From Candidatus Amesbacteria bacterium GW2011_GWB1_47_19 (GTDB lineage Bacteria > Patescibacteriota > Microgenomatia > CAZETR01 > Amesbacteraceae), in NCBI GenBank assembly GCA_001002325.1, contig LCNZ01000005.1:18274-82273 (forward strand): a stretch of DNA of 64,000 nucleotides, in the 5' to 3' direction. A program made the translations under genes and the position numbers. Below the pieces are notes generated by a model. The model searched no databases. It saw only the letters and a program-made list of their open reading frames with translations, and had not been told where the DNA came from. Shown here piece by piece: positions 9,073 through 60,122 of this stretch (the first letter of the stretch is position 1; every line of letters begins with the position of its first letter).

Positions 9073-9143
9073 AGCGGCTAAGGGGAATCGAACCCCTGTC
9101 ATCTCCTTGGCAAGGAGAAGTTCTACCATTGAACCATAGCCGC
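9073..9143 (-). tRNA. tRNA-Gly (anticodon GCC)
   Basis: Acceptor gcggcta/tagccgc, anticodon loop ttGCCaa, T-loop ttcgatt. Confidence 0.85.
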
Positions 9144-9147
9144 AGTG

Positions 9148-9220
9148 TGCCGAGAGCTGGAGTCGAACCAGCATCTGACGCTCTTCAGGCGCCCGCCGTA
9201 ACCACCTTGGCTATCTCGGC
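9148..9220 (-). tRNA. tRNA-Phe (anticodon GAA)
   Basis: Acceptor gccgaga/tctcggc, anticodon loop ctGAAga, T-arm gctggttcgactccagc. Confidence 0.85.
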
Positions 9221-9295
9221 GAAGGAATGAAATGACTGAGCTGAGATACAGCGTAAGTCGTATCTCGGCAAGGAACGAGCTTCAGTTGGATTTTA

Positions 9296-9478
9296 CTACA
9301 TCCGGGGAGGGCTTAAACAGTATCCAGTGCGGTCTCTCCCTTTTTTTAAAAATCTAAAATCTGTATTAAATAGTTTATCAACTTGAGCCGCGGATGGTCT
9401 AATACCTGTATTTTTTTCCACCAAATCTTGAAAATTAGATATTATTTCTTCCCGAAGTTGTTCTTGGGAGGTAGCCAT
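9296..9478 (-). CDS. hypothetical small ORF (60 aa)
   Basis: ORF only. Sits between tRNA-Phe and tRNA-Val. No similarity recognised. Confidence 0.2.
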   Translation of the reverse strand: MATSQEQLREEIISNFQDLVEKNTGIRPSAAQVDKLFNTDFRFLKKGRDRTGYCLSPPRM

Positions 9479-9523
9479 TTATTGATTGTATACCTGGGGT
9501 CAATAGTTGCTGACGCTGTCTGG

Positions 9524-9597
9524 TGGACGATGAGGGACTCGAACCCCCGACCCCCGCTGTGTAAAAGCGATGCTCTAACCAGCTGAGCTAATCGTCC
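9524..9597 (-). tRNA. tRNA-Val (anticodon TAC), CCA encoded
   Basis: Acceptor ggacgat/atcgtcc, anticodon loop ttTACac, T-arm gggggttcgagtccctc, followed by cca. Confidence 0.85.
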
Positions 9598-9616
9598 TGA
9601 GATTATATTACAGCTG

Positions 9617-9700
9617 TGGGCAAGAGAGGACTTGAACCTCCACTCCCTTGCGGGAACAGGCTCCTGAAGCCTGCGCGTCTGCCAGTTCCGCCACTTGCCC
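9617..9700 (-). tRNA. tRNA-Leu (anticodon CAG), type II
   Basis: Acceptor gggcaag/cttgccc, anticodon stem caggc/gcctg with loop ttCAGga, long variable arm, T-loop ttcaagt. Confidence 0.85.
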
Positions 9701-9945
9701 TAGAACTGATTCATGAGCTCCGCAATTATCTCACGTCCGAAACCGGATTTGAAGAATTTCTCAAGATTCCTGGCCTGTATTCTGGTATCGCACTCTTCGA
9801 CGTGAATCAATCGCAACGGCAAATGACCTCTTGTGGAGGGCGATTTACCACTTTCGTGTTGATACAGGCGTCTTTGTAAGTTGTTGGTTATCCCTTTGTA
9901 AATGAATTTATCCCCGTAACTTTGAAGGATATAAACAAAATACAT
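9700..9945 (-). CDS. GIY-YIG nuclease family mini-protein
   Basis: MYFVYILQS...KFIYKGITNNLQRRLYQHE. The stop codon overlaps nt 1 of tRNA-Leu(CAG). Confidence 0.8.
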   Translation of the reverse strand: MYFVYILQSYGDKFIYKGITNNLQRRLYQHESGKSPSTRGHLPLRLIHVEECDTRIQARNLEKFFKSGFGREIIAELMNQF

Positions 9946-9948
9946 GTT

Positions 9949-10073
9949 TGAAGCCTGCGCGCCTGCCTGCCGGCAGGCAGGTCTGCCAGTTCCGCCACTT
10001 GCCCTAGAACTGATTCATGAGCTCCGCAATTATCTCACGTCCGAAACCGGATTTGAAGAATTTCTCAAGATTC
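9949..10073 (-). repeat. direct repeat of 9665-9769 (GIY-YIG 3' end plus tRNA-Leu nt 1-36) with inserted 20-bp palindrome
   Basis: 13 + 92 nt are identical to 9665-9677 and 9678-9769. Perfect palindrome CCTGCCTGCCGGCAGGCAGG at 9962-9981 sits between them. Confidence 0.8.
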
Positions 10074-10194
10074 TTATGAGAAAAATGAATCAATCAAACT
10101 GCTTATATTGATGTACCCAAACCAAAATGTCATATGTCTTACGCGAAAAAAATATAAAATTGTCAATTCATTGGGTATAATTAAGAAAGTAGGA

Positions 10195-10278
10195 GCCGGG
10201 ATGCTGAAACTGGTAGACAGGCATGCTTGAGGGGCATGTGTCAGCAATGGCGTGGAGGTTCGAGTCCTCTTCCCGGCA
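10195..10278 (+). tRNA. tRNA-Leu (anticodon GAG), type II
   Basis: Acceptor gccggga/tcccggc, anticodon stem catgc/gcatg with loop ttGAGgg, long variable arm. Confidence 0.8.
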
Positions 10279-10282
10279 CACT

Positions 10283-10366
10283 GCCGGGGTGGCGAAATGG
10301 TAGACGCAAGGGCCTTAAGAGCCCTCGGTCCAAAAGACCATGCGAGTTCGAGTCTCGCCCCCGGCA
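10283..10366 (+). tRNA. tRNA-Leu (anticodon TAA), type II
   Basis: Acceptor gccgggg/ccccggc, anticodon stem agggc/gccct with loop ctTAAga, T-arm gcgagttcgagtctcgc. Confidence 0.85.
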
Positions 10367-10368
10367 CA

Positions 10369-10764
10369 ATGAGTTTTGAGTGTGTTAATTGTCATTACCT
10401 GGTACGGGAAGGTAAAAGATATGCCGGGACGGAAAACAGAAACCATTGCACGAAATGTTTGTGGTCATTGCATGCGGATTTAAGACCTGGTGACAGAAAA
10501 GCATTGTGCGGAGGAAAAATGAATCCCGCGGGGCTTACTTTTAAGCGGGTGAAAAAAGATAAGTACGGGAAAGAAAAGGTTGGAGAATTGATGCTAGTAC
10601 ACCAATGCGTAAAATGCCTAGAAGTATCAATAAACAGGATTGCGGCGGATGACGACCCGGTGGAAATAATGAATCTCGTAAATTCCGGTTTTTCTGTTGA
10701 AGGAATCAGTGTGCTGGATGAGGCTGACAGGTCGGAAGTACGCAGGCAGCTATTCGGGGTGTAA
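10369..10764 (+). CDS. RNHCP-domain zinc-ribbon protein
   Basis: Literal RNHCTKC signature plus additional CxxC pairs. The ATG lies 2 nt after tRNA-Leu(TAA). The ORF-track upstream extension from 10252 covers two tRNAs and is rejected. Confidence 0.6.
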   Translation: MSFECVNCHYLVREGKRYAGTENRNHCTKCLWSLHADLRPGDRKALCGGKMNPAGLTFKRVKKDKYGKEKVGELMLVHQCVKCLEVSINRIAADDDPVEIMNLVNSGFSVEGISVLDEADRSEVRRQLFGV

Positions 10765-10775
10765 AATTATAAACA

Positions 10776-10848
10776 CGGAGAGTGGCGCAGCTGGTAGCGC
10801 GCATCGTTTGGGACGATGAGGCCCCGGGTTCGAGTCCCGGCTCTCCGA
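10776..10848 (+). tRNA. tRNA-Pro (anticodon TGG)
   Basis: Acceptor cggagag/ctctccg, anticodon stem catcg/cgatg with loop ttTGGga, T-arm ccgggttcgagtcccgg. Confidence 0.85.
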
Positions 10849-18068: not shown

Positions 18069-19685
18069 TCAGAGCAAGTGCTTTTGCACTATTGGGGAAG
18101 AACGGAGGAAGAGAATTAGAAAAATAATGATAGTGAGAAGAGAAACTAAGTTGGCCAGACGGTGGATAGGGGGTTCAAGAAGGCGGAATTCCAGAAGATG
18201 CGAGCCGGAGGGAATATTTACGGCCAGCAACCCCTGATTTTGTGGTAGCCGGGGGTTCAGGAGAGGAATTTTTTGCCGGTCAAGATAAGCTGTCCAGCCG
18301 GGAAAATAGACAGTGCGGTCGATAAAAACTCCGCCTGAAGATGAAGATATAAGAAATGAGTGGTAATTGGTTTTCCAAGAGGTTTGTGTGACAACAGATG
18401 AATCAGGGGCGATAAATCGGGAAGTTACGGATGTGTCGGCAGACTGCCAGACGGGGGTATGTTCAGCATCTGGAGTGGTCGTGGAAGGAATGGAGGTTTC
18501 AGCTAGCCAGCTGCCTGGGATTTCCAGATATTGATTTACCCGCCAGTGATTGCGGTTGGCATACAACAACAGAAGCGTGAATAGAATGACAGAAAGACGG
18601 GGCAGGGGTATACGTGAGACTACCCAAGCCGCAAGAAATGAGACACTTAGGGATACCAAGCCCAAAAGCCTCCAGGGGAATTGGAGTAAGTGTAGAGGGG
18701 GAATCAGATGCCAAACCGGTAAGCTGATTTTGAGCATCAGAAATACTGACAGGCATGTCGATATCATGAAGAAAAGGGGAAGAAGAGGGATTTTTTGGCG
18801 GTGGATAATGCTGATTAGGATCAGGAACACCGTTGAAATAAATATCAGGATTTGGGGAAGGCCGATTTGAAAAGACATCTCTCCCCTACTGGCACCCACA
18901 TTGGAAAATCCAAATCCCCAGGGAGAATAAATCAGTTGTTTGAGAGTGGCGAAATGTTCGGGATAATATTGCGAAAATGTCTTGTATATGGAGACATAAT
19001 GCAAGTCAAAAAGGGCAGGAATCCAGAAAAATGCGGTCAGGAGAACGGCCATAATCAGGGGAAGGATTTGTTGTTTACGGATTGCCAAAATATAAATAAT
19101 GATTACCGGCAGGAAGACCATCGCTGTGAGATTGTGAGCGAGAATGAGCATGGACAGAAGCAGAGTCACGGGGAATTTCCGTCCGGCAGAGTAAAGGATT
19201 GCGGGAACAAGAGTTAAAGCCAGAGCTTCACCGATATTTCCCCTGACGTAGACATTCAGAAAATGATACGGAATGTATGTATAGAATAAGCCTCCGGCTA
19301 TGGCCGGTAAGCGGGAAAAATGGCGGGATAACCAGAGATAGGTAAAGTATCCGCTTAAAGGGAAAGTCAGCAAAAACAATAATTTGAAGGCGCTGCCATA
19401 ATTTAAACCCAGATAAATCAGGCTGACAGCCAGGTAATAGACCCCGGGGTAATTGAAATTGAAAAAAGGGTAACCTAATCCCCAATTTAGGCGCTTTGCC
19501 CACCGGACAGGGAACTGACCATCTTTAAGCGCCTGGTGGAAATCAACCAGACGGATGATATGGCCTTCCAGATCGTGGGAGGTATAGATTCCGGGATGCA
19601 GGAGAGCCCGGTAAGCCGGGAAGGTGATGAGGAGAAAGAACAGAATAATTCCTACTTCCCTACCCCGGTTTTTGATTGATGACAC
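18069..19685 (-). CDS. polytopic integral membrane protein, possible GT-C-type glycosyltransferase
   Basis: About 12 predicted TM helices with an extracytoplasmic C-terminal domain. The architecture resembles ArnT/PMT-like enzymes. Weak family call. Confidence 0.35.
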   Translation of the reverse strand: MSSIKNRGREVGIILFFLLITFPAYRALLHPGIYTSHDLEGHIIRLVDFHQALKDGQFPVRWAKRLNWGLGYPFFNFNYPGVYYLAVSLIYLGLNYGSAFKLLFLLTFPLSGYFTYLWLSRHFSRLPAIAGGLFYTYIPYHFLNVYVRGNIGEALALTLVPAILYSAGRKFPVTLLLSMLILAHNLTAMVFLPVIIIYILAIRKQQILPLIMAVLLTAFFWIPALFDLHYVSIYKTFSQYYPEHFATLKQLIYSPWGFGFSNVGASRGEMSFQIGLPQILIFISTVFLILISIIHRQKIPLLPLFFMISTCLSVFLMLKISLPVWHLIPPLHLLQFPWRLLGLVSLSVSFLAAWVVSRIPLPRLSVILFTLLLLYANRNHWRVNQYLEIPGSWLAETSIPSTTTPDAEHTPVWQSADTSVTSRFIAPDSSVVTQTSWKTNYHSFLISSSSGGVFIDRTVYFPGWTAYLDRQKIPLLNPRLPQNQGLLAVNIPSGSHLLEFRLLEPPIHRLANLVSLLTIIIFLILFLRSSPIVQKHLL

Positions 19686-21407: not shown

Positions 21408-21698
21408 TTAGGACATCTTTAAAGTGTTTTTCAAAATTTGTTTTAGTTGATTGTGACCGTAGCCACTTTTTAGATATATTTCTCTAGCTTCGGCATCTTG
21501 ACGATTTTGAAAATATTCGTAATGAATTAATTTTAAAGGTCGGCGGGTTTTGGTGGAATCGACTTTGCCTAAATTGTGATCTTGTAGGCGACGCTTTAAA
21601 TCGTTGGTGAAGCCAATATAAAGTTTTAAATCTTTTTGAGATTGAAGGACATAGACGTAGTATTTGTTTGTAAAAACGTCGGACGTTTTTGTAGGCAT
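21408..21698 (-). CDS. GIY-YIG nuclease family mini-protein
   Basis: KYYVYVLQS...LKLYIGFTNDLKRRLQDHN. Confidence 0.8.
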   Translation of the reverse strand: MPTKTSDVFTNKYYVYVLQSQKDLKLYIGFTNDLKRRLQDHNLGKVDSTKTRRPLKLIHYEYFQNRQDAEAREIYLKSGYGHNQLKQILKNTLKMS

Positions 21699-21729: not shown

Positions 21730-21802
21730 GGTGGATGACGGGTGATGCTCCCGCTACCTCCGCATCCACAGTGCGGCGCTCTACTGATGAGCTACATCCA
21801 CC
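21730..21802 (-). tRNA. tRNA-His (anticodon GTG) with encoded G-1
   Basis: Extra 5' G, acceptor gtggatg/catccac, discriminator C, anticodon loop ctGTGga. The T-loop reads agcatca, which is atypical, so moderate confidence. Confidence 0.65.
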
Positions 21803-21841: not shown

Positions 21842-22807
21842 TTAGCGGAGATAGAAGAAGGATCCGGTAGTGATGAATACCAGGGCTGCCAATCCCAGGA
21901 TAAGTGTGGTCTGCATAGCCCCGGTTTGCGGCAAATTGCCGTCAGGAGTGGTGACAGAGACAGGAGTACGGGTAGGCGTAGGTGTTAAATCATTGCCGGT
22001 GCAGACACAATCGATATTGTAGGGACATGCCGGTGCCCGGCAATAACCCTGGAAACAATAAAGACTTGATTCGCAATTGGTGTTGTTGCCGCAGGAACCG
22101 CCACAGGAGTTGGGGTCACCAGAACCGGGGGAATCTGTAGGAGTAGCTGAGGGAGACGTCGGTGAGGTGGGTTCCGGTGTGGACGAAGGGGCGGCGGAGG
22201 GTGCAGGGGAGATAGAAGAAGAAACAAAAGTATATTCACCGGTGGAGGACGGAGTCAGCAGAACATCCTGGCCGTCAGATTTTCTGGTAACGATACTTTG
22301 CAGAGGATCGAATGTCAGGATAACGGGATTTACGACAGGAATATCACTGGACGTCAGATTGAAAGTGGCCAATGCAACTGCGGTATTTGAACTATATCCT
22401 TCAGTGGCGGTATTTAAGCAGGCTATATCGATTGTTACTATACCATTGGACGAGTTGGGGGATTTGACAGGACATACCCAGTCGTCGGAATTGCGAATGA
22501 CTGAACTGGTCTGGATATTGGATACAACTACTTCAGGCGTTTCACCACTGTATTCGAATTTAATCCGGGCGGAAACACCGGAGATCGGCAGACCGGCCGG
22601 ATCCAGATAGATGGTGACAACCTGGGACAAATTAACAGGAATACTGGCGGTGGCCGGAGAAAGTGAGATAGTGGCCTGACCGGCGGGAGTAGAGGCTTTT
22701 TTGGAGAACAACTGACGCTCACGGATAAGATAAACACCGGCAAAAGTTGCTAGCAGAACCACTAAAACCACGACAAGCGAAATGATGATTTTTACCGAGG
22801 CGCGCAT
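21842..22807 (-). CDS. Cell-surface protein: N-terminal TM, cohesin-like domain, S/T/P linker, Cys-rich module, LPQTG sortase signal
   Basis: C-terminal LPQTG plus a hydrophobic stretch ending ...YLR. N-terminal domain carries ARIKFEYSG...TIDIACLN motifs shared with 22822 and 23418. Confidence 0.55.
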   Translation of the reverse strand: MRASVKIIISLVVVLVVLLATFAGVYLIRERQLFSKKASTPAGQATISLSPATASIPVNLSQVVTIYLDPAGLPISGVSARIKFEYSGETPEVVVSNIQTSSVIRNSDDWVCPVKSPNSSNGIVTIDIACLNTATEGYSSNTAVALATFNLTSSDIPVVNPVILTFDPLQSIVTRKSDGQDVLLTPSSTGEYTFVSSSISPAPSAAPSSTPEPTSPTSPSATPTDSPGSGDPNSCGGSCGNNTNCESSLYCFQGYCRAPACPYNIDCVCTGNDLTPTPTRTPVSVTTPDGNLPQTGAMQTTLILGLAALVFITTGSFFYLR

Positions 22808-22821
22808 AAAGACAGAATAAC

Positions 22822-23421
22822 TTATTTAAGAATCAAAATCTCGGGAAAAGTTGTCAGAGAGATCTCTTCCCCGCGCTTACTGACCACTTTTGTGAGGGCG
22901 GAATCGAGGCTAAGAGAGAGGTTGGGAATGGCGGTAAGAGCAGTAATTTCAAATGTGGCCATATCGACCGGACCTTCGGGGATATAGCCTTCGGGAGTGA
23001 CATTAGCTGCTGCAAAATCAATGTTCACCTGTTTGTTGACTTTATCTATCTCGACCTTGTTGATCGGAAACAACCACCCGGCATCCAAAAGAGACTTATT
23101 GGATTTGGTCTGGACACCAGTTTTTAAGGTATCGGAGTCTGCAATTTTTATGTCCGGTTCATCGCCAGTGTAGTTATATTTAATCCGTGCTGCAAGTGCG
23201 GCCAGTTTAATTCCCTTGGCGTTAAGTGTCAGACTGACAGTGAGCTTATCACCCTTTGAGTTTAGAGATCTGATGAAGGGGGTGGGTGTAGGTTTGGGAA
23301 TTGAGGTAGCCTGAACAACAGCCTGACCTGAAGGGCTAGATGTAGATGGTTTGTAGGTTGATTTAAGAGCATACAAACCAACCAGCGCAGCGACAGCAAA
23401 AACAAGTACAACTATTTTCAT
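22822..23421 (-). CDS. Secreted cohesin-like domain protein
   Basis: Signal/TM plus a single domain with ARIKYNYTG...NIDFAAANV...GY...ATFEI motifs. Confidence 0.5.
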   Translation of the reverse strand: MKIVVLVFAVAALVGLYALKSTYKPSTSSPSGQAVVQATSIPKPTPTPFIRSLNSKGDKLTVSLTLNAKGIKLAALAARIKYNYTGDEPDIKIADSDTLKTGVQTKSNKSLLDAGWLFPINKVEIDKVNKQVNIDFAAANVTPEGYIPEGPVDMATFEITALTAIPNLSLSLDSALTKVVSKRGEEISLTTFPEILILK

Positions 23422-25721
23422 GGATTGTCTCCGAATACTTCTAATTGAGTGTAATTGCTTAATACTATAGCAATATCCGTGATAGTAATAAAGTTGTCGG
23501 CATCTATGTCGTATATCATATTTTCGGAAAAGACTGGAACGGCTAACTCTGTGTAGTTGCTGATCATCAGACCCAGGTCAATAATGTTGAGAATGTTGTT
23601 GTCATCAAAATCACCAGCCATCATTTCCAGTGATGCCCAAGCGGCGGGGCCGACATTGAGGCCGAAGACGAATCTTAGAGTACCCAGCCTTTTTTGCAGG
23701 TATCCGGGACCTTTGGAGTAGACATCATAGTTGGTACCGAGGGAAGAAATAGGAGACTGGGCGATGTCTATGGGAGCATCGGAGTTGAAGACTCCGTTGA
23801 TGGTACTGGTCATGGTGTGGGTATAGGTATAGCCGTCAAAAGCGTTTACCAGGGACGGGTTTACGCTACGGTTTACGAGAGATCTGGTAACCCCTTGCAT
23901 CCTGACCGAGTAGCGGAAAGTGGAAGGAGGAGGTTCGGTGGGGTAAGGAGTGTCTGTAGGATACGGAGTTTCGGTGGGGTAAGGAGTGTCTGTAGGATAC
24001 GGAGTTTCGGTGGGGTAAGGAGTCTCAGTCGGGGCCGTGACAAACGTATAGACAGGATTGGACGGAGGAATGAGAATATTACGTGTAGGACTGGCTTTGG
24101 TCATAACTTTAGTCTGAATCAGATCGTAAGTCAGGCGTACGGGGTTGGTAGGAGGTACGGTGAGCGCGTAAATATAGAACCTGACAATGGGCTGGCTGAC
24201 GTTGCTGGTATAGCCCACCGTGGAGGTATTAGTGGCAGCGAAGTCGATGGTTACCCGGCCATTTGCGCGTGAAACTGAATTGACGGGGAAAGTCCAATAG
24301 GGAGAACTATCAAACGGATCAACGGTGGTAATCTGGTAAACTGGGTTACCGAATTGGTCTGTAATATCCACTTCAACATCACCCGTGGCACTATACGGGT
24401 ATGAAAGCCGGAAACTAAGGGAGGAGATGGCCTGTCCTCCGGTATTGAGGCTGATGGTGATAGGAAACGCTTGGGTGGTTGGTTTGGTAGCGGTGAGCGG
24501 GTTTGTAGTTAGAGTGGCGGATCCAACGACACCAGTCGGAGTAGCTGAGGGAATGGGTGCGACGGTGGCGGTACCTCCAGGTAATGTCGGCACGACGGTG
24601 CCGGTACCCCCTGAGGGTTGTACTATAACGGAATACATACCCACAATGGTCGTGGGGTCATTGGGGCCGAGAGTGACAGTCTGACCAGCCGAAAAATCGC
24701 GTGAAAGCAGACTATATGTGGTAGGTTCACTATTAACCATATTCAGTCCGGTATCGGTATAAGCTGTGGTCCAGGACGGCCGGCCGGTAATACGATCATC
24801 GAACGCCAGATAGACAATTGCATGACTGGCAACGGTAAAAGTAGCCAGAGGGCTAGTGTTGTAGGAGCGGGAAACTTGAGCGGTGCGGATCCATTGCGAG
24901 CCTAAGACCAGAGAAGGAATAGTAGACCAAATATAGGTCCGATCTCCATATTGAGTGGAACCCACTTGAAGATTATTCTGGATGGACCAATTGACAGCAT
25001 TGGCTGAATCGTAAACTACCAGATTGGAAATCAGGGATCCGGGACCCGGGGTGGGTGTGTTGGTGCCCTGAATAGTAACATCAGCGGGAGAGGTAGAAAA
25101 AACGAGGTTAGTGCTAAGGTCGTTAACCAATTGGGAGTTGGGGGCATTGATGACAATTTGGGTAGGAACCGATTGGCCTTGTTGGAGTTTAAATGCCACC
25201 GGGAAACTGGCGGCTTCGATCAGGCCGGATTGGGCAGGGGGTTTGGGATCGCATTGACCCTGAATAGGATCACATAACGCCAGGGCAAAGATAACCCTGC
25301 CTGTGGAGTTGGCATTAGCCATGGTTGTTTTGGAAATAATAGCCGGGAACAAGGAAGTGGTGGTAACATCACCGGTTAACTGGATCAGGCTCTGGTTAAA
25401 GTTTAATTCGACCAGGATAAAACCAATCATGTGGGCTTTGGCATCGACCATCACTTTTACTGTTTGATTCGGAGGAAGAGTAAAAGATGAAGCGCCGGAA
25501 GAGCTGGTAACGTAAATATGCGGATCGGTGGCGGCGGCGCGGGAAGGCAGTTTGATGCCACCGGTCTTGAGGATATAAACGGCAACAGGAAGACTGAGGG
25601 CAAGAATTACCAGGGCGGCGATTTGGAGAAACAGCGGGAGCCGGACAAACTTTCCACGTAAGCGGTCAAAAAAACTTTCTTTAGGCAAAGACGGAGTCTC
25701 TTCCGACAAGTCTTTTTTCAT
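23418..25721 (-). CDS. Large surface protein with cohesin-like domain, (TPYPT[DE]) repeats and C-terminal dockerin-like double Ca-binding repeat
   Basis: C-terminus has DFDDNNILNIIDLGLMISNY followed by DIDADNFITITDIAIVLSNY, two DxDxDN-type repeats. Internal segment carries FRLSYPYSATG...VTIDFAATN. N-terminal TM. Confidence 0.55.
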   Translation of the reverse strand: MKKDLSEETPSLPKESFFDRLRGKFVRLPLFLQIAALVILALSLPVAVYILKTGGIKLPSRAAATDPHIYVTSSSGASSFTLPPNQTVKVMVDAKAHMIGFILVELNFNQSLIQLTGDVTTTSLFPAIISKTTMANANSTGRVIFALALCDPIQGQCDPKPPAQSGLIEAASFPVAFKLQQGQSVPTQIVINAPNSQLVNDLSTNLVFSTSPADVTIQGTNTPTPGPGSLISNLVVYDSANAVNWSIQNNLQVGSTQYGDRTYIWSTIPSLVLGSQWIRTAQVSRSYNTSPLATFTVASHAIVYLAFDDRITGRPSWTTAYTDTGLNMVNSEPTTYSLLSRDFSAGQTVTLGPNDPTTIVGMYSVIVQPSGGTGTVVPTLPGGTATVAPIPSATPTGVVGSATLTTNPLTATKPTTQAFPITISLNTGGQAISSLSFRLSYPYSATGDVEVDITDQFGNPVYQITTVDPFDSSPYWTFPVNSVSRANGRVTIDFAATNTSTVGYTSNVSQPIVRFYIYALTVPPTNPVRLTYDLIQTKVMTKASPTRNILIPPSNPVYTFVTAPTETPYPTETPYPTDTPYPTETPYPTDTPYPTEPPPSTFRYSVRMQGVTRSLVNRSVNPSLVNAFDGYTYTHTMTSTINGVFNSDAPIDIAQSPISSLGTNYDVYSKGPGYLQKRLGTLRFVFGLNVGPAAWASLEMMAGDFDDNNILNIIDLGLMISNYTELAVPVFSENMIYDIDADNFITITDIAIVLSNYTQLEVFGDNP
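23931..24040. repeat. three tandem 36-bp repeats encoding TPYPTETPYPTD
   Basis: ttcggtggggtaaggagtgtctgtaggatacggagt appears three times in tandem, inside CDS 23418-25721. Confidence 0.8.
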
Positions 25722-25783
25722 TGTACGTTTTCATAGTAGAACGATTTGGGAGGAGAAGTCAAGCGGTAATTATTTGATGTACA

Positions 25784-31901: not shown

Positions 31902-31973
31902 GCCCCCGTAGCTCAACGGACAGAGTAAGTCCCTTCTAAGGACGAGATGGAGGTTCGATTCCTCCCGGGGGCA
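31902..31973 (+). tRNA. tRNA-Arg (anticodon TCT)
   Basis: Acceptor gcccccg/cgggggc, anticodon loop ctTCTaa, T-arm ggaggttcgattcctcc. Confidence 0.8.
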
Positions 31974-31978
31974 CTTGT

Positions 31979-32050
31979 GGGCCCGTAGCTCAGGGGTAGA
32001 GCAGTCGCCTCTTAAGCGAACGGTCGAAGGTTCGAATCCTTCCGGGCTCA
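31979..32050 (+). tRNA. tRNA-Lys (anticodon CTT)
   Basis: Acceptor gggcccg/cgggctc, anticodon loop ctCTTaa, T-arm gaaggttcgaatccttc. Confidence 0.8.
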
Positions 32051-32055
32051 CTTAA

Positions 32056-32126
32056 TGCGAGGTCGTCTAATGGTAGGACAGCAGACTTTGGATCTGCTTA
32101 TCTTGGTCCGAATCCAAGCCTCGCAG
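32056..32126 (+). tRNA. tRNA-Gln (anticodon TTG)
   Basis: U1:A72 acceptor tgcgagg/cctcgca, anticodon stem gcaga/tctgc with loop ctTTGga, T-arm cttggtccgaatccaag, discriminator G, followed by a T-run. Confidence 0.85.
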
Positions 32127-55431: not shown

Positions 55432-57745
55432 AAGGATGATTAGTTTTTAATGAAATAAGCTTTTCCTCACAATGGTATACGATTTCCCGGGTGCGGGCAA
55501 TAGCGTCAGGATTAACAGAGATGCTGGTAATACCCCAGGAAACGAGTTTTTCCACCAGATCCGGATACTGGGAGGGTGCCTGACCGCAAATACTGCAAAG
55601 AATTCCTCTTTTGACACAGGTTTTGATGGTTTTTTCTAATGCCCAGAGCACTGCAGGGTTCAGTTCACTGAACTGGGATGCGACTTCTGAGTTGTCACGG
55701 TCTATTCCCAGAATCAGCATGGTGAGGTCGTTACTGCCGATAGATACGCCGTCGATACCGACATCAATGAAGTCGTCCAGAAGGATGACGTTGGCCGGAA
55801 TTTCCACCATCATGTAAAGCTTGAAAGATGAAGATCGATAGAGACCGGCGGCAGCTACCAATTTTTTTACTTCGGTCAGTTCAAATACGGTAGATACGAA
55901 AGGTATCATCAAATGCAGATTTTTCAGGTCCATTTTGTGACGGACGAGTTTAATGGCTTCCAATTCCAAATTGAATACCTCCGGGGTTTTGATATAACGG
56001 AATGCTCCCCTGAAACCGAGCATAGGATTGGATTCTTCTGGTTCGAACTTCTCCCCTCCCTTAAGAGCCCGGTATTCGTTGGTTTTGAAATCTGTTGCCC
56101 GGTAAATCACAGGGCGGGGGTGGAAGGCTTTGCAAAAGATGCCGATGTCTTGAGCCAACTTATTTATAAATTGAAGGCTTTTACCCTCGGCGATGAGTTT
56201 TTTGGGATGAATGCCGATACCGGCTATCATGAATTCAGCCCGCAGGAGACCAACACCGTCGACGTGGATGGTGGAGATTTTTTCCGCCAGATCAGGCTCG
56301 GCCAAATTGACATAAATTTTGGTTGCGGTTTTTAATAAAGAATCCGGAGGCGGTTTTTTGGGATCGGACTGAGCTACCTGTATGGAAGATCGGGGTAATG
56401 AACCTTTGAAAACTTCCCCCGTGACTCCATTTACGGTGATAATCATACCTTCTTTAAGGAATTTGGTGGCCGTGGTGGTGCCGACTACACAGGGTACACC
56501 TAATTCCCGGGAAACGATGGCAGCATGGGAGGTTAGCCCACCCCGGTTGGTAACTATTGCCGAGGCCCGTTTCATGGCCGGGACAAAGTCTGGTGTGGTC
56601 ATATCGGTTACCAAAATGTCGCCTGTTTTGACTTTGTCCAAATGTTTGGTATCCGGAACCAGGCGGACTGGCCCCGAAGCTATTCCGGGGGATGCGGGGG
56701 CTCCGGTAAGTATTGATTTACCGAGATTTTTTGTCAGATCTGCGGGTACGGCGGACTGTTTTTCACCCAAAGTAGTAATGGGCCGGCTCTGGGTGATAAA
56801 CAAGCGATCCTTATATAAAGCCCATTCTATGTCCTGGGGAAAAAAATAATGATGATGGACCTTTTTTCCGATTTTGGCCAGTTCAATAATATATTTATCC
56901 GATAATTTCTGGTGTTTGCGACGGGAACGGGGAACCGGCAGTTGTTTGACACCCAAGGTTTTCCTGACTTCCATCACTTCCTGATTGCTGATTTGGCGCG
57001 AACGGATTTCCAGATCTGACTTTGAGACTTCATAATGATCGGGAGTAACCACACCCTGAACAATATAATCACCCAGGCCATAAATGGCTTCTATCACCAG
57101 AAGGTTTTTGTCCTGGGTTATGGGGTCGATTGTGAACATGACTCCCGAGACTTCTGATTGAACCATCTGCTGAACAGGAACGGCAATACCGACTTTGAAA
57201 TGGTCGAATTTTTTTTGGACCCGATAGAAAATGCTTCTTTCACCGAAAAGCGACAGCCAACACTCCTTAACTTTTAAAAGGACGTTGGAGTCTCCTGAAA
57301 TGTTGAGATAAGATTCCTGCTGACCGGCAAACGAAGCGTCCGGCAAATCCTCGGCGGTGGCAGATGAACGGACAGCCACGGGAATATTTGACCCCAGATT
57401 CCAGTGATCAATATTGAGTTGATGGTAAGCGGAAAATATTTCTGCGGAAACTGCCGGCGGCATTTCGGCGTGATCCAACAAATGCCTGACTTTTTGTGAA
57501 GCCTGTCTGAGCTGTGCCGGGTCCAGGACGTCGACGGAAGACAACAATTGATGGATTTGAGAGCGAAGGCGGTTGTGTTCCAGAAAATTGAAGTAGGCGT
57601 CGGCAATAACCACAAATCCCGGAGGCACGGGAATTCCGGCCGAGGTTAATTCTCCGAGATTGGCTCCTTTACCACCGGCTATATCGATGTCCTCTTTTCC
57701 CAACTGGTCAAACCAGCGGATATATTTATATTTTTTTAATTTCAT
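55418..57745 (-). CDS. ppsA: Phosphoenolpyruvate synthase (pyruvate, water dikinase)
   Basis: N-terminal ATP-grasp GGKGANLGEL, phospho-His domain TNRGGLTSHAAIVSRELGVPCVVG, C-terminal PEP-utilising TIM barrel. 775 aa. Confidence 0.8.
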   Translation of the reverse strand: MKLKKYKYIRWFDQLGKEDIDIAGGKGANLGELTSAGIPVPPGFVVIADAYFNFLEHNRLRSQIHQLLSSVDVLDPAQLRQASQKVRHLLDHAEMPPAVSAEIFSAYHQLNIDHWNLGSNIPVAVRSSATAEDLPDASFAGQQESYLNISGDSNVLLKVKECWLSLFGERSIFYRVQKKFDHFKVGIAVPVQQMVQSEVSGVMFTIDPITQDKNLLVIEAIYGLGDYIVQGVVTPDHYEVSKSDLEIRSRQISNQEVMEVRKTLGVKQLPVPRSRRKHQKLSDKYIIELAKIGKKVHHHYFFPQDIEWALYKDRLFITQSRPITTLGEKQSAVPADLTKNLGKSILTGAPASPGIASGPVRLVPDTKHLDKVKTGDILVTDMTTPDFVPAMKRASAIVTNRGGLTSHAAIVSRELGVPCVVGTTTATKFLKEGMIITVNGVTGEVFKGSLPRSSIQVAQSDPKKPPPDSLLKTATKIYVNLAEPDLAEKISTIHVDGVGLLRAEFMIAGIGIHPKKLIAEGKSLQFINKLAQDIGIFCKAFHPRPVIYRATDFKTNEYRALKGGEKFEPEESNPMLGFRGAFRYIKTPEVFNLELEAIKLVRHKMDLKNLHLMIPFVSTVFELTEVKKLVAAAGLYRSSSFKLYMMVEIPANVILLDDFIDVGIDGVSIGSNDLTMLILGIDRDNSEVASQFSELNPAVLWALEKTIKTCVKRGILCSICGQAPSQYPDLVEKLVSWGITSISVNPDAIARTREIVYHCEEKLISLKTNHPYGQT

Positions 57746-60122
57746 CCTTGTACCAGTCTACCCAAGGAATAGGTCCGGGGTCAATGTGATTTAACAGAGA
57801 TAAATAATAAGCTATAAAACTACCGGTCTGTACCAAATCCATCGACTCAAAGAAACGGGACGGCCCGACAGGTTTGAGGCTTATGACGGGTAAGTGATGG
57901 CGAGTTACGGCAGAAACTGTGACAGGCAGAGTGCGGTTAATTTCCGGGTTATAAAGATCGGAGCCGATAATAACAAAAACCAGGTTTTGGGGAAGAGTTG
58001 AAGGAAAAGTCAATCCTTCCAACAAGTGGTGGTTGGCTTCGGGAACGTCAAACAGAACCGCAAATGTCTTGGCGTTTTCATTTATCTGATTTTTAAATCC
58101 ATGCGCCGGCCCTTTGAGATGTTCTGAGGCAATGAGGACAGGGATGCGGCCGACCAGCTGTTTGGCCAGATTGAAATATGAGTCGGCTAATTCCTGACGT
58201 TTTTTCAGGAAATCGGGCAAATGGTTTAGGTCCTTTATGGGATGAATCAGGCGGCATCGGGAAAGCAATGTGATCAATGCCAGTATGCTGTAACCTAAAC
58301 CCATACGAGGCTGGGTGGAGGGGTTTGCATCAGTTGAAAAAACATAGTGAGGCAGATTTTGGTCGAGGGCAACTTCGGCCAACTTTCCTCCACTGGTAAG
58401 AATATAAATTTGGGCTCCTCGGCTACGGGCTTCGGCCAGTGAGGTGAGAGTCTCTTCGGTATTACCGGAGTAACTGGATATGACTACCAAAGAATTATTG
58501 TCGACAAAATTCGGTAAATGGTATTCAGTCGAAACTACGATAGGGATTTTCAGCTGCTGGCGCTCCAAACCGGCGATAATCCGCCCACCCAGGGCGGATC
58601 CACCCATTCCGGAAATAACGATGTTTTTGGACAGGAAACATGATTCGGGAATATACTGCTGTACCAGATCTCTGATAACCTGGGAACATTGGTCCGGAAA
58701 GGAGGTAATCGAATCACCTACCCTGAGAGAATCCTGGGACTCAAGTTCGGACAGAGATTGATAACCTGAAGTGGTTGTATTAACGGAGGGATTGATAAGA
58801 CCTTTCAGCCAGGCAAGATTTTCCTGGCCGAGTTTTTCACAGCGGGATTTATCGTTACTTTGAACGTACACTCTGAATTCGGGCGCATTACCGGATCCGC
58901 GGAATAACAGCCAATCATGATTGTTCAGTATTACTTTCAGACCGTCCGTGGCGTCAATATCATGAGAGGAATATTTTTCGCGAACCCGGTCGAGAATGTA
59001 GGCATATTTGGAAAAAGGACAGTCTGATTTTTCGCGGAAAAGATAGAATTTTGGGAGTGTGGCGACAGATCGGGAAAGACTGCCTCCCCGGTGTTTGAGG
59101 TAGTTGAGCATTTTTATAAGAGTAGAGCCTCCGTCCCGGCCGTAAAATATTTCACTGCTGATACCGCCGCCATTGGCTTCGAACCCGAATTTTGAACCAT
59201 AACGTTTCATGGCTTCTATAACAAATGTGGAGCCGACTTTGGTACGGTAAACCTTTTTACCCAGGGCATCCACTACGGAGCTGGTACTGACGGGGGTAAC
59301 AAAAGAAGCAGAGTCACTAACAGATGCCAATAAAGAGCAGGAGTAGTCACCGGGAATATAATTTCCCTGCTCGTCGATAAAAACAATGCGATCACCGTCA
59401 ACATCAAATCCCAACCCCAGATCCGCACCTTTGGCCAATATGAGACGTGAGGCCTCTAAAAAAGAGGTGGAAATTTCCGTGTCACGGGGAACAAAATGAG
59501 GCGCCTGGATATCACATTCTTCGGTAGTGATGAAATCAAGACCCAGATCCGAAAGCAGAGCAGGCATGATTTGCGATTGGGTACCATTGGCAGTGTCCAG
59601 GACAATTTTCCAGGAGGGATAAGGCGTGTCTGCCAAATTCTTTAACATATCCAGATACAAATCCCTGGCTGCGTCGGATCTTGTCACCACCGGAATGACC
59701 TGGTTATCAGATGCAGGTGCGTCGTGTTGTGTAAATAAATTCTCGATTTCAATTTCCTGTTTTTTGTTGACTTCCTCACCGTCAAATAAAAATTTAACCC
59801 CGTTTAAATTCGCGGTAATATGGCTGCCGGTAATCATAACCGCTCCACCCAGGTAACCGGTTTGCTTTAAAAAGTAGGTGAGGCAGGGTGTGGGAATCAC
59901 ACCCTGGTCGGATATTTCCCAACCACATGCTGATAAACCTCTGATAACGTCAGTTTTAATGCGGGGGCTGCTGTCGCGGGGATCCATAGCAACAGCGATT
60001 TGGCCGGTTTTCCCTTTGGAAATGAGCCATGAACCGTAGGTATATCCCAGGCGAAAACAGAATTGGGGAGTGAAAAGCTGATCTGCTGGGCCACGAACAC
60101 CGCTGGTACCGAAAAGTTTCAT
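57726..60122 (-). CDS. Fusion protein: alpha-D-phosphohexomutase (PMM/PGM) N-terminal half plus bifunctional phosphoglucose/phosphomannose isomerase (SIS) C-terminal half
   Basis: N-terminal GTSGVRG and the TGSHITANLNG phosphoserine loop. C-terminal GMGGSALGGR plus the PGI/PMI C-domain. Confidence 0.7.
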   Translation of the reverse strand: MKLFGTSGVRGPADQLFTPQFCFRLGYTYGSWLISKGKTGQIAVAMDPRDSSPRIKTDVIRGLSACGWEISDQGVIPTPCLTYFLKQTGYLGGAVMITGSHITANLNGVKFLFDGEEVNKKQEIEIENLFTQHDAPASDNQVIPVVTRSDAARDLYLDMLKNLADTPYPSWKIVLDTANGTQSQIMPALLSDLGLDFITTEECDIQAPHFVPRDTEISTSFLEASRLILAKGADLGLGFDVDGDRIVFIDEQGNYIPGDYSCSLLASVSDSASFVTPVSTSSVVDALGKKVYRTKVGSTFVIEAMKRYGSKFGFEANGGGISSEIFYGRDGGSTLIKMLNYLKHRGGSLSRSVATLPKFYLFREKSDCPFSKYAYILDRVREKYSSHDIDATDGLKVILNNHDWLLFRGSGNAPEFRVYVQSNDKSRCEKLGQENLAWLKGLINPSVNTTTSGYQSLSELESQDSLRVGDSITSFPDQCSQVIRDLVQQYIPESCFLSKNIVISGMGGSALGGRIIAGLERQQLKIPIVVSTEYHLPNFVDNNSLVVISSYSGNTEETLTSLAEARSRGAQIYILTSGGKLAEVALDQNLPHYVFSTDANPSTQPRMGLGYSILALITLLSRCRLIHPIKDLNHLPDFLKKRQELADSYFNLAKQLVGRIPVLIASEHLKGPAHGFKNQINENAKTFAVLFDVPEANHHLLEGLTFPSTLPQNLVFVIIGSDLYNPEINRTLPVTVSAVTRHHLPVISLKPVGPSRFFESMDLVQTGSFIAYYLSLLNHIDPGPIPWVDWYKDEIKKI

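Follow-up and report, generated by a model that had tools for sequence, protein, structure and literature searches.

Three adjacent genes of Candidatus Amesbacteria bacterium GW2011_GWB1_47_19 (contig LCNZ01000005.1), here called p767, p199 and p321 after the lengths of their products, probably constitute a conserved cell-surface scaffold cassette of cohesin and dockerin modules in an uncultured, ultra-small Amesbacteria-like bacterium of the Microgenomates, a lineage of the candidate phyla radiation (CPR, or Patescibacteria). The genes lie in a stretch of 64,000 nucleotides (positions 18,274 to 82,273 of the contig), which we call the window and to which all coordinates below refer. Cohesin–dockerin scaffolds are used by cellulose-degrading bacteria to hang protein complexes on the cell wall. 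CPR bacteria have tiny genomes, most of their surface proteins are annotated as hypothetical, and their attachment to substrates or hosts is poorly understood. The public records of p767, p199 and p321 carry no Pfam domain. The features of the cassette are the following (ORF, open reading frame; aa, amino acid residues; X-Doc, X module followed by dockerin; pLDDT, predicted local distance difference test score).

23418-25721, minus: p767 gene (767 aa), scaffoldin-like (ORF)
25569-25640, minus: p767 aa 28-51, hydrophobic N-terminal segment, putative signal peptide or membrane anchor (from the sequence)
25047-25526, minus: p767 aa 66-225, cohesin-like module A, a divergent copy (family profile, independent E-value 4.7e-32 with a profile that itself includes the cohesin A sequence)
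24612-25040, minus: p767 aa 228-370, beta-sandwich accessory module, putatively carbohydrate-binding (homology, profile, AlphaFold2 model, Foldseek)
24036-24527, minus: p767 aa 399-562, cohesin-like module B, adjoining the X-Doc
23922-24035, minus: p767 aa 563-600, Pro/Thr (PT) linker with the hexapeptide TPYPT[ED] five times (sequence; low pLDDT)
23649-23921, minus: p767 aa 601-691, X module, beta-rich, packed before the dockerin
23421-23648, minus: p767 aa 692-767, dockerin with two calcium-loop/helix repeats, loops at 23577-23612 and 23475-23510
22822-23421, minus: p199 gene (199 aa), small single-cohesin protein (ORF)
22825-23331, minus: p199 aa 31-199, cohesin-like domain, divergent (BLASTP, family profile)
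21842-22807, minus: p321 gene (321 aa), predicted anchoring single-cohesin protein (ORF)
22220-22684, minus: p321 aa 42-196, cohesin-like domain (BLASTP, family profile, sequence)
22106-22216, minus: p321 aa 198-234, PT linker (sequence)
22001-22105, minus: p321 aa 235-269, Cys-rich segment of 35 aa with eight cysteines, between the PT linker and LPQTG
21845-21934, minus: p321 aa 292-321, sorting signal of LPQTG, 24 mostly hydrophobic residues and a terminal R
25733-25762, minus: weak candidate promoter, TTGACT, 18-nt spacer, TACTAT (consensus scan, 9/12 matches)

The stop codon of p767 overlaps the start of p199 by 4 nt and a gap of only 14 nt separates p199 from p321, so that the three genes look like one operon. 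The promoter-like site, situated 12 nt ahead of the start codon of p767, is by its sequence a possible promoter of this operon, and a tRNA gene (21730-21801) comes after p321.

A domain of about 155 aa (150–165 aa) is common to all three proteins and is present in four copies at the locus, two of them in p767, while the rest of the window outside the three genes lacks it. In pairwise BLASTP comparisons p321 (aa 43-232) and p767 (aa 400-597) are 35% identical (E 7e-31), and p199 is 26% identical to p321 (E 1e-16) and 29% to p767 (E 2e-15); the second, more divergent copy of p767 (aa 66-225) was recognised with the family profile. An initial annotation, made by a model from the letters of the DNA, had described three adjacent paralogous ORFs of 321, 199 and 767 aa, which are present exactly as given, their paralogy being borne out by the E-values above. 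It was also right that one domain is shared by all three proteins and that its quoted core motifs occur in each of them; the size it gave, about 130 aa, was too small, and the copy at aa 66-225 of p767 had escaped it.

The family to which this domain belongs was recovered when 1.84 billion representatives were searched exhaustively with a profile, word-indexed searches having given few matches or matches dominated by the PT linker. It comprises 483 representative clusters at E<=1e-3 and 254 at E<=1e-10, and its only named member is labelled "Patescibacteria group bacterium". Searches of PDB sequences (phmmer with p767, and small and wide family profiles) yielded R. flavefaciens cohesins only, at non-significant E-values of 0.15–0.4. 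When 103 aligned sequences (family members and the three window proteins) were scanned with Pfam, Cohesin matched seven at E<0.01 (best 5e-7) and Dockerin_1 matched ten (best 7e-8). The C-termini of 150 family representatives carry an LPxTG-like signal, defined as [LVIM]Px[TSA]G, with a hydrophobic tail in 61 cases, the same X-Doc module as p767 in 28 and a canonical dockerin in nine. Four family members matched Pfam Dumpy_DPY. Most members, p321 included (aa 1-45, 22673-22807, minus), begin with a short basic start and some 20 hydrophobic residues, followed directly before the cohesin by a charged block of the type RQRQEIRKKAAVPxGxA, which in p321 has the form IRERQLFSKKASTPAGQA. Ordinary Sec signals do not usually have a conserved basic block behind their hydrophobic segment, and the block may serve export or processing in a manner specific to this lineage.

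The predicted structure of the shared domain is that of a cohesin, a nine-strand beta-sandwich of the jelly-roll type. A model of p767 aa 395-767, built from the alignment of 103 sequences, reached a mean pLDDT of 91.3, and its best match in a Foldseek search of the PDB was the CohI9-X-DocII fragment of CipA (4fl4, E 4.7e-12), with the entire query covered. Single cohesins came next, with a TM-score of about 0.7 relative to the target, and ScaE (2zf9) and CohG (4n2o) were among the structural matches. The cohesin-like fold that had been proposed for the domain thus agrees with its modelled structure. The cohesin assignment is based on structure, profiles and relatives, since direct Pfam searches of the window proteins stay below the thresholds; the modules themselves are expected to bind dockerins.

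The last 170 aa of p767 correspond to a conserved unit that forms the very end of at least 25 family representatives. A profile of this unit, made from seven sequences, matches by sequence alone the X module and type II dockerin of CipA (2b59_B, E 2.9e-7), 3kcp_A/4fl4 (E 1e-6), 5g5d_B (E 3.6e-6) and the A. cellulolyticus X-Doc chains 4wi0_B and 4u3s_B, the E-values for all X-Doc chains ranging from 2.9e-7 to 3e-4. The X module immediately upstream of the dockerin is therefore homologous to that of scaffoldin X-Doc dyads. Orthologous X-Doc modules exceed the Dockerin_1 (PF00404) threshold of 22.9 bits in P0141 (33.0), P0133 (30.8), P0097 (25.6) and P0104 (25.4), as do those of loci L008 (26.1) and L009 (23.8). 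The two C-terminal repeats, correctly recognised as dockerin-type in the initial annotation, read DFDDNNILNIID...SNY with its loop at aa 704-715 and DIDADNFITITD...SNY with its loop at aa 738-749. Both 12-residue loops have D or N at positions 1, 3, 5 and 12, position 9 being N in the first repeat and T in the second, and the calcium loops are conserved in 19 orthologues. In the model each loop is followed by a helix and the dockerin contains three helices, which gives the duplicated loop-and-helix arrangement of a dockerin. The profile matches, the scores of the orthologues and the loops with their helices together identify the tail of p767 as an X-Doc dyad, the kind of dockerin by which primary scaffoldins are attached to anchoring scaffoldins.

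The remainder of p767 fits this assignment in its order: a hydrophobic N-terminus, cohesin A, a module resembling a carbohydrate-binding module (CBM), cohesin B, the PT linker, the X module and the dockerin. Several cohesins, a putative substrate-binding module and an anchoring dockerin are thus combined in one protein, and this layout is that of a scaffoldin and not of an enzyme; the initial annotation had taken the protein for a large adhesin or enzyme. The module at aa 228-370 is 63–64% identical to modules that stand just before the dockerin in proteins of the glycoside hydrolase family 5 (GH5) type and others, and it recurs at the C-terminus of GH28-type proteins with 45–51% identity. Its profile matches the C-terminal domain of the GH2 structure 6hpd (E 2e-11); its AlphaFold2 model (pLDDT 85.7) retrieves 6hpd (E 8e-8) and the C-terminal domain of the GH138 structure 6hzf (E 2e-3) in Foldseek, and known CBMs weakly. 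From sequence and model it is a putative carbohydrate-binding module. The length of the PT-linker region differs between assemblies of the same population, in which p767 is called as 755, 767 or 696 aa.

Modules of the same kind were also seen in a separate tandem array of at least eight genes on two ENA contigs, L015 (1-14310) and L016 (1-11437), of the ANAN16-1 sample series, which also contains the cassette locus. All genes of the array end in a canonical dockerin, GDxNGDGxVxGVDYMIWF...GDYNSSGYVDGVDYMxWFTNYG, six of them share the module of p767 aa 228-370 with 62–64% identity, and their catalytic or binding parts include GH5, pectate-lyase-like with CBM6, PQQ propeller and FG-GAP. The composition of the array (GC 0.50 vs 0.465, tetranucleotide correlation r 0.76–0.81) does not assign it to the genome of the window, and it was found on two contigs vs 47 index blocks for p199.

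The C-terminus of p321 has the LPXTG motif, hydrophobic stretch and basic end of a sortase substrate, as had been proposed, the basic end being a single R. It scores 17.7 bits with NCBIfam TIGR01167 LPXTG_anchor, above the cut-off of 15.9, and 15.7 bits with Pfam Gram_pos_anchor, under the threshold of 20. The protein p199 has a hydrophobic N-terminal segment and no C-terminal anchor. The tail of p321 (22001-22216) varies between assemblies, and on contig L014 p321 is lost to a frameshift; a true loss of the gene was rejected there, the contig having the same sequence, in which low-complexity regions have suffered deletions or frameshifts.

A genome scan with the X-Doc profile, one genome per GTDB species, yielded ten loci: two in Ca. 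Amesbacteria, one each in Shapirobacteria (L002), Microgenomatus, Woesebacteria and a Patescibacteria bacterium, and four in metagenome-assembled genomes (MAGs) labelled otherwise. The gene order of X-Doc protein, small cohesin (~160–235 aa) and cohesin with an LPXTG-like anchor (~280–330 aa) is preserved at eight of the ten. Seven of the ten X-Doc proteins scanned from related loci have a cohesin upstream of the X-Doc by family profile or Pfam; three that the family profile missed have a Pfam Cohesin match, at 30.3 (L003), 29.1 (L006) and, in the third, 21.1 bits (threshold 24.1). What precedes the X-Doc differs from one locus to the next (cohesins, fn3, CARDB or unknown), whereas the X-Doc itself and both cohesin genes are constant. 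In a neighbour-joining tree without bootstrap the cohesins form four clades that follow module position, namely the N-terminal and the X-Doc-proximal cohesins of the scaffoldins, the small cohesins and the LPXTG-anchored ones. The orthologues of cohesin A in the Amesbacteria loci L001 and L005 form a clade of their own, seven of nine small-cohesin sequences from the window and related loci group together, and the LPXTG-type cohesins of the related loci make up one clade. Such a tree indicates old, specialised paralogues rather than a recent duplication.

The records labelled 'uncultured Gammaproteobacteria' (L003, L006, L008) and 'Chloroflexota' (L007) contain X-Doc proteins of the Microgenomates type, and the first three have the full cassette and a GC content of 0.38–0.46. 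We suspect that the taxonomic labels of these four MAG records are wrong, while L007 (GC 0.58, tetranucleotide r 0.07) could be either a genuine outlier or a case of transfer.

For R. flavefaciens it is textbook matter that scaffoldin genes are clustered and include one for a sortase-anchored cohesin. In its sca cluster the XDoc of ScaB and CttA binds ScaE, a sortase-anchored cohesin, and ScaG is a stand-alone cohesin (PMC5301203); scaffoldin genes being typically clustered in this manner, the compact layout is less unusual than the initial annotation had supposed. The likeness extends to an anchoring protein with one cohesin and LPXTG (p321, like ScaE), to a partner with cohesins and/or CBMs that ends in an X-module/dockerin dyad, and to a small additional single-cohesin protein, p199 being comparable to ScaG. 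The cassette differs in that its host belongs to the Microgenomates and not to the Firmicutes, that it has only three genes and four cohesins, that p767 merges a ScaB-like part (cohesins) with a CttA-like part (the CBM-like module), that its cohesins are too divergent for Pfam and that it is known here without enzyme partners. By sequence, moreover, the X-Doc of p767 resembles the type II dyad of CipA and not the insertion-bearing type III dyad of R. flavefaciens. In C. (Acetivibrio) thermocellum the X-DocII of CipA binds anchoring cohesins of the SdbA type (PDB 4fl4, 3kcp, 2b59, 5g5d). CipA, however, contains a CBM3 along with its nine cohesins and is anchored by partners that use SLH domains, whereas p321 has a sortase signal and the CBM-like module of p767 is of an uncharacterised family to which the C-terminal domain of GH2 structure 6hpd is related.

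On this basis the scaffold may be envisaged as follows. The p321 protein would be exported, cut by sortase at LPQTG and joined covalently to peptidoglycan, so that one cohesin is displayed on a Pro/Thr- and Cys-rich stalk. Exported p767 would plug its calcium-bound C-terminal X-Doc dyad into this cohesin and, once docked at the wall, would present two more cohesins as sockets for other dockerin-bearing proteins, with its CBM-like beta-sandwich probably binding a glycan. The third kind of cohesin, p199, either held by its N-terminal hydrophobic segment or released, would serve as an alternative or auxiliary socket. A class A penicillin-binding protein gene on the same contig, 10 kb from the window, indicates that a cell wall is made, and sortase is reported as near ubiquitous in Microgenomates (PMC6744442) and is encoded by a complete Microgenomates genome (PMC7143001).

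Several observations weigh against a cohesin–dockerin scaffold. When the HMM searches proposed in the initial annotation were made, the window proteins remained below both thresholds: Pfam Cohesin (PF00963) gave no match at E<1 for p321, p199 or p767, its gathering score not being reached, and the p767 dockerin scored only 12.6 bits with Dockerin_1 (E 0.16, profile positions 1-52 of 57). The window contains no other dockerin-bearing protein, which leaves three of the four cohesins without a ligand there. No TLxTC-type motif of a sortase occurs in any plausible ORF of the window, and the search for a sortase was likewise negative in the called genes of the 10 kb left of the window and in the sequences flanking the ten related loci. 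The pTM of the p767 aa 395-767 model (0.58) makes the relative orientation of its modules uninformative. What suggests the pairing of the p767 X-Doc with p321 is analogy and gene neighbourhood, and p199 or the cohesins of p767 itself may take the place of p321; binding to a partner, dependence on calcium and location at the surface are predicted properties of the cassette. The interpretation given in the initial annotation is nevertheless supported overall, both of its structural tests having come out favourably in the models.

The same parts might also serve a different role, as a device by which an ultra-small episymbiont attaches to a host cell or particle and not as a cellulosome, with the CBM-like module or the variable N-terminal payloads acting as the adhesin and no enzymes being recruited. 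The absence of a dockerin-bearing enzyme from the window is in keeping with this, as is the fact that the part upstream of the X-Doc changes from locus to locus while the rest of the cassette does not; in R. flavefaciens, CttA, which combines an XDoc with CBMs, serves adhesion (PMC5301203), and cultivated Patescibacteria are described as obligate episymbionts (PMC11623550). Yet p767 retains two cohesins, for which dockerin binding is the only known function, its CBM-like module is otherwise found on glycoside hydrolases ending in dockerins, and a Shapirobacterales population expressing cohesin and dockerin proteins is reported to have encoded glycoside hydrolases as well (bioRxiv 10.1101/2021.08.21.457207). 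We regard attachment as a possible role, if a rather unlikely one. A broader form of the idea, which we hold to be doubtful, is a lineage-wide sortase-anchored docking station in which the X-Doc plug and the two cohesin sockets would stay constant and the N-terminal payloads would be interchangeable, serving the ultra-small cells for attachment to hosts or host surface glycans and not for the digestion of cellulose. If this were true, these episymbionts would have their attachment organ in the cohesin–dockerin pairing, and the four conserved classes of cohesin would make up a small specificity code complete in itself.

It is improbable that the shared domain is a mere beta-sandwich stalk of sortase-anchored surface proteins or pilins, with the dockerin-like tail binding something else or just calcium. 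The X-Doc of p767 might bind cohesin B, either within one molecule or between two p767 molecules, giving self-capped or chain-forming scaffolds with p321 as the terminal anchor only or unrelated. Cohesin B is indeed the nearest paralogue of the p321 cohesin, and Coh-X-Doc is the smallest architecture conserved among the X-Doc proteins; but cohesin B and the LPXTG cohesins belong to separate, long-diverged orthologous clades, which suggests different specificities, and in systems such as CipA and ScaB the X-Doc of a scaffoldin is not known to bind the cohesins of the same protein. Self-binding appears very improbable, and docking of p767 on wall-anchored p321 is the arrangement we prefer.

The neighbours of the cassette are housekeeping genes (UvrA, UvrB, PPDK, ThrRS, iPGM, NUDIX hydrolases and many tRNAs), and an origin of the cassette from a mobile element was rejected for this reason. 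The locus sequence is also present on contig DNMO01000005.1 (GCA_003488165.1) and recurs in many ENA and JGI assemblies; in tetranucleotide composition the two Amesbacteria loci are closest to the window (r 0.94). Immediately downstream of the cassette a GIY-YIG nuclease ORF of 96 aa (21408-21698, minus) adjoins the tRNA gene at 21730-21801, and further GIY-YIG ORFs occur in the first 10 kb of the window (genes as called on the source contig, L019), which points to a family of small endonuclease genes that may be mobile. The window has 15 tRNA genes, mostly in dense clusters at 9073-10848 and 31902-32126. Over positions 1-64000 the GC skew of the plus strand is positive nearly throughout (typically +0.1 to +0.27) and the cumulative skew climbs steadily, the majority of the long ORFs being on the minus strand; a disparity of strand composition has been noted for a published complete Microgenomates genome (PMC7143001). 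At 57726-60122 (minus) an ORF of 798 aa fuses phosphoglucomutase/phosphomannomutase domains I–III to a bacterial PGI-type SIS domain.

Cohesin and dockerin proteins in CPR bacteria are already known, as are clustered scaffoldins with a sortase-anchored cohesin. Such proteins were reported in a metaproteome of Ca. Shapirobacterales (bioRxiv 10.1101/2021.08.21.457207 = PMC9123182), and a 'two-subunit cellulosome' or "simple cellulosome" in a rhizosphere Saccharibacterium (bioRxiv 10.1101/211649 = PMC6031116). The passages concerned deal with the same broad lineage and domain types as our cassette; they list domain annotations only and mention no three-gene cassette, X-module, LPXTG anchor or Microgenomates-wide conservation. 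The present analysis adds the conserved three-gene cassette of the Microgenomates, its X-module, the four classes of cohesins and a divergent family of ~480 cohesin clusters, mostly missed by current domain models and databases. The cassette reveals no new principle and is a well-preserved example in a little-studied lineage. Its recognition gives a concrete and testable model of how the cell surface of Microgenomates is constructed and carries the X-dockerin/anchoring-cohesin arrangement beyond the cellulolytic Firmicutes, where it has been studied until now, into a distant lineage.

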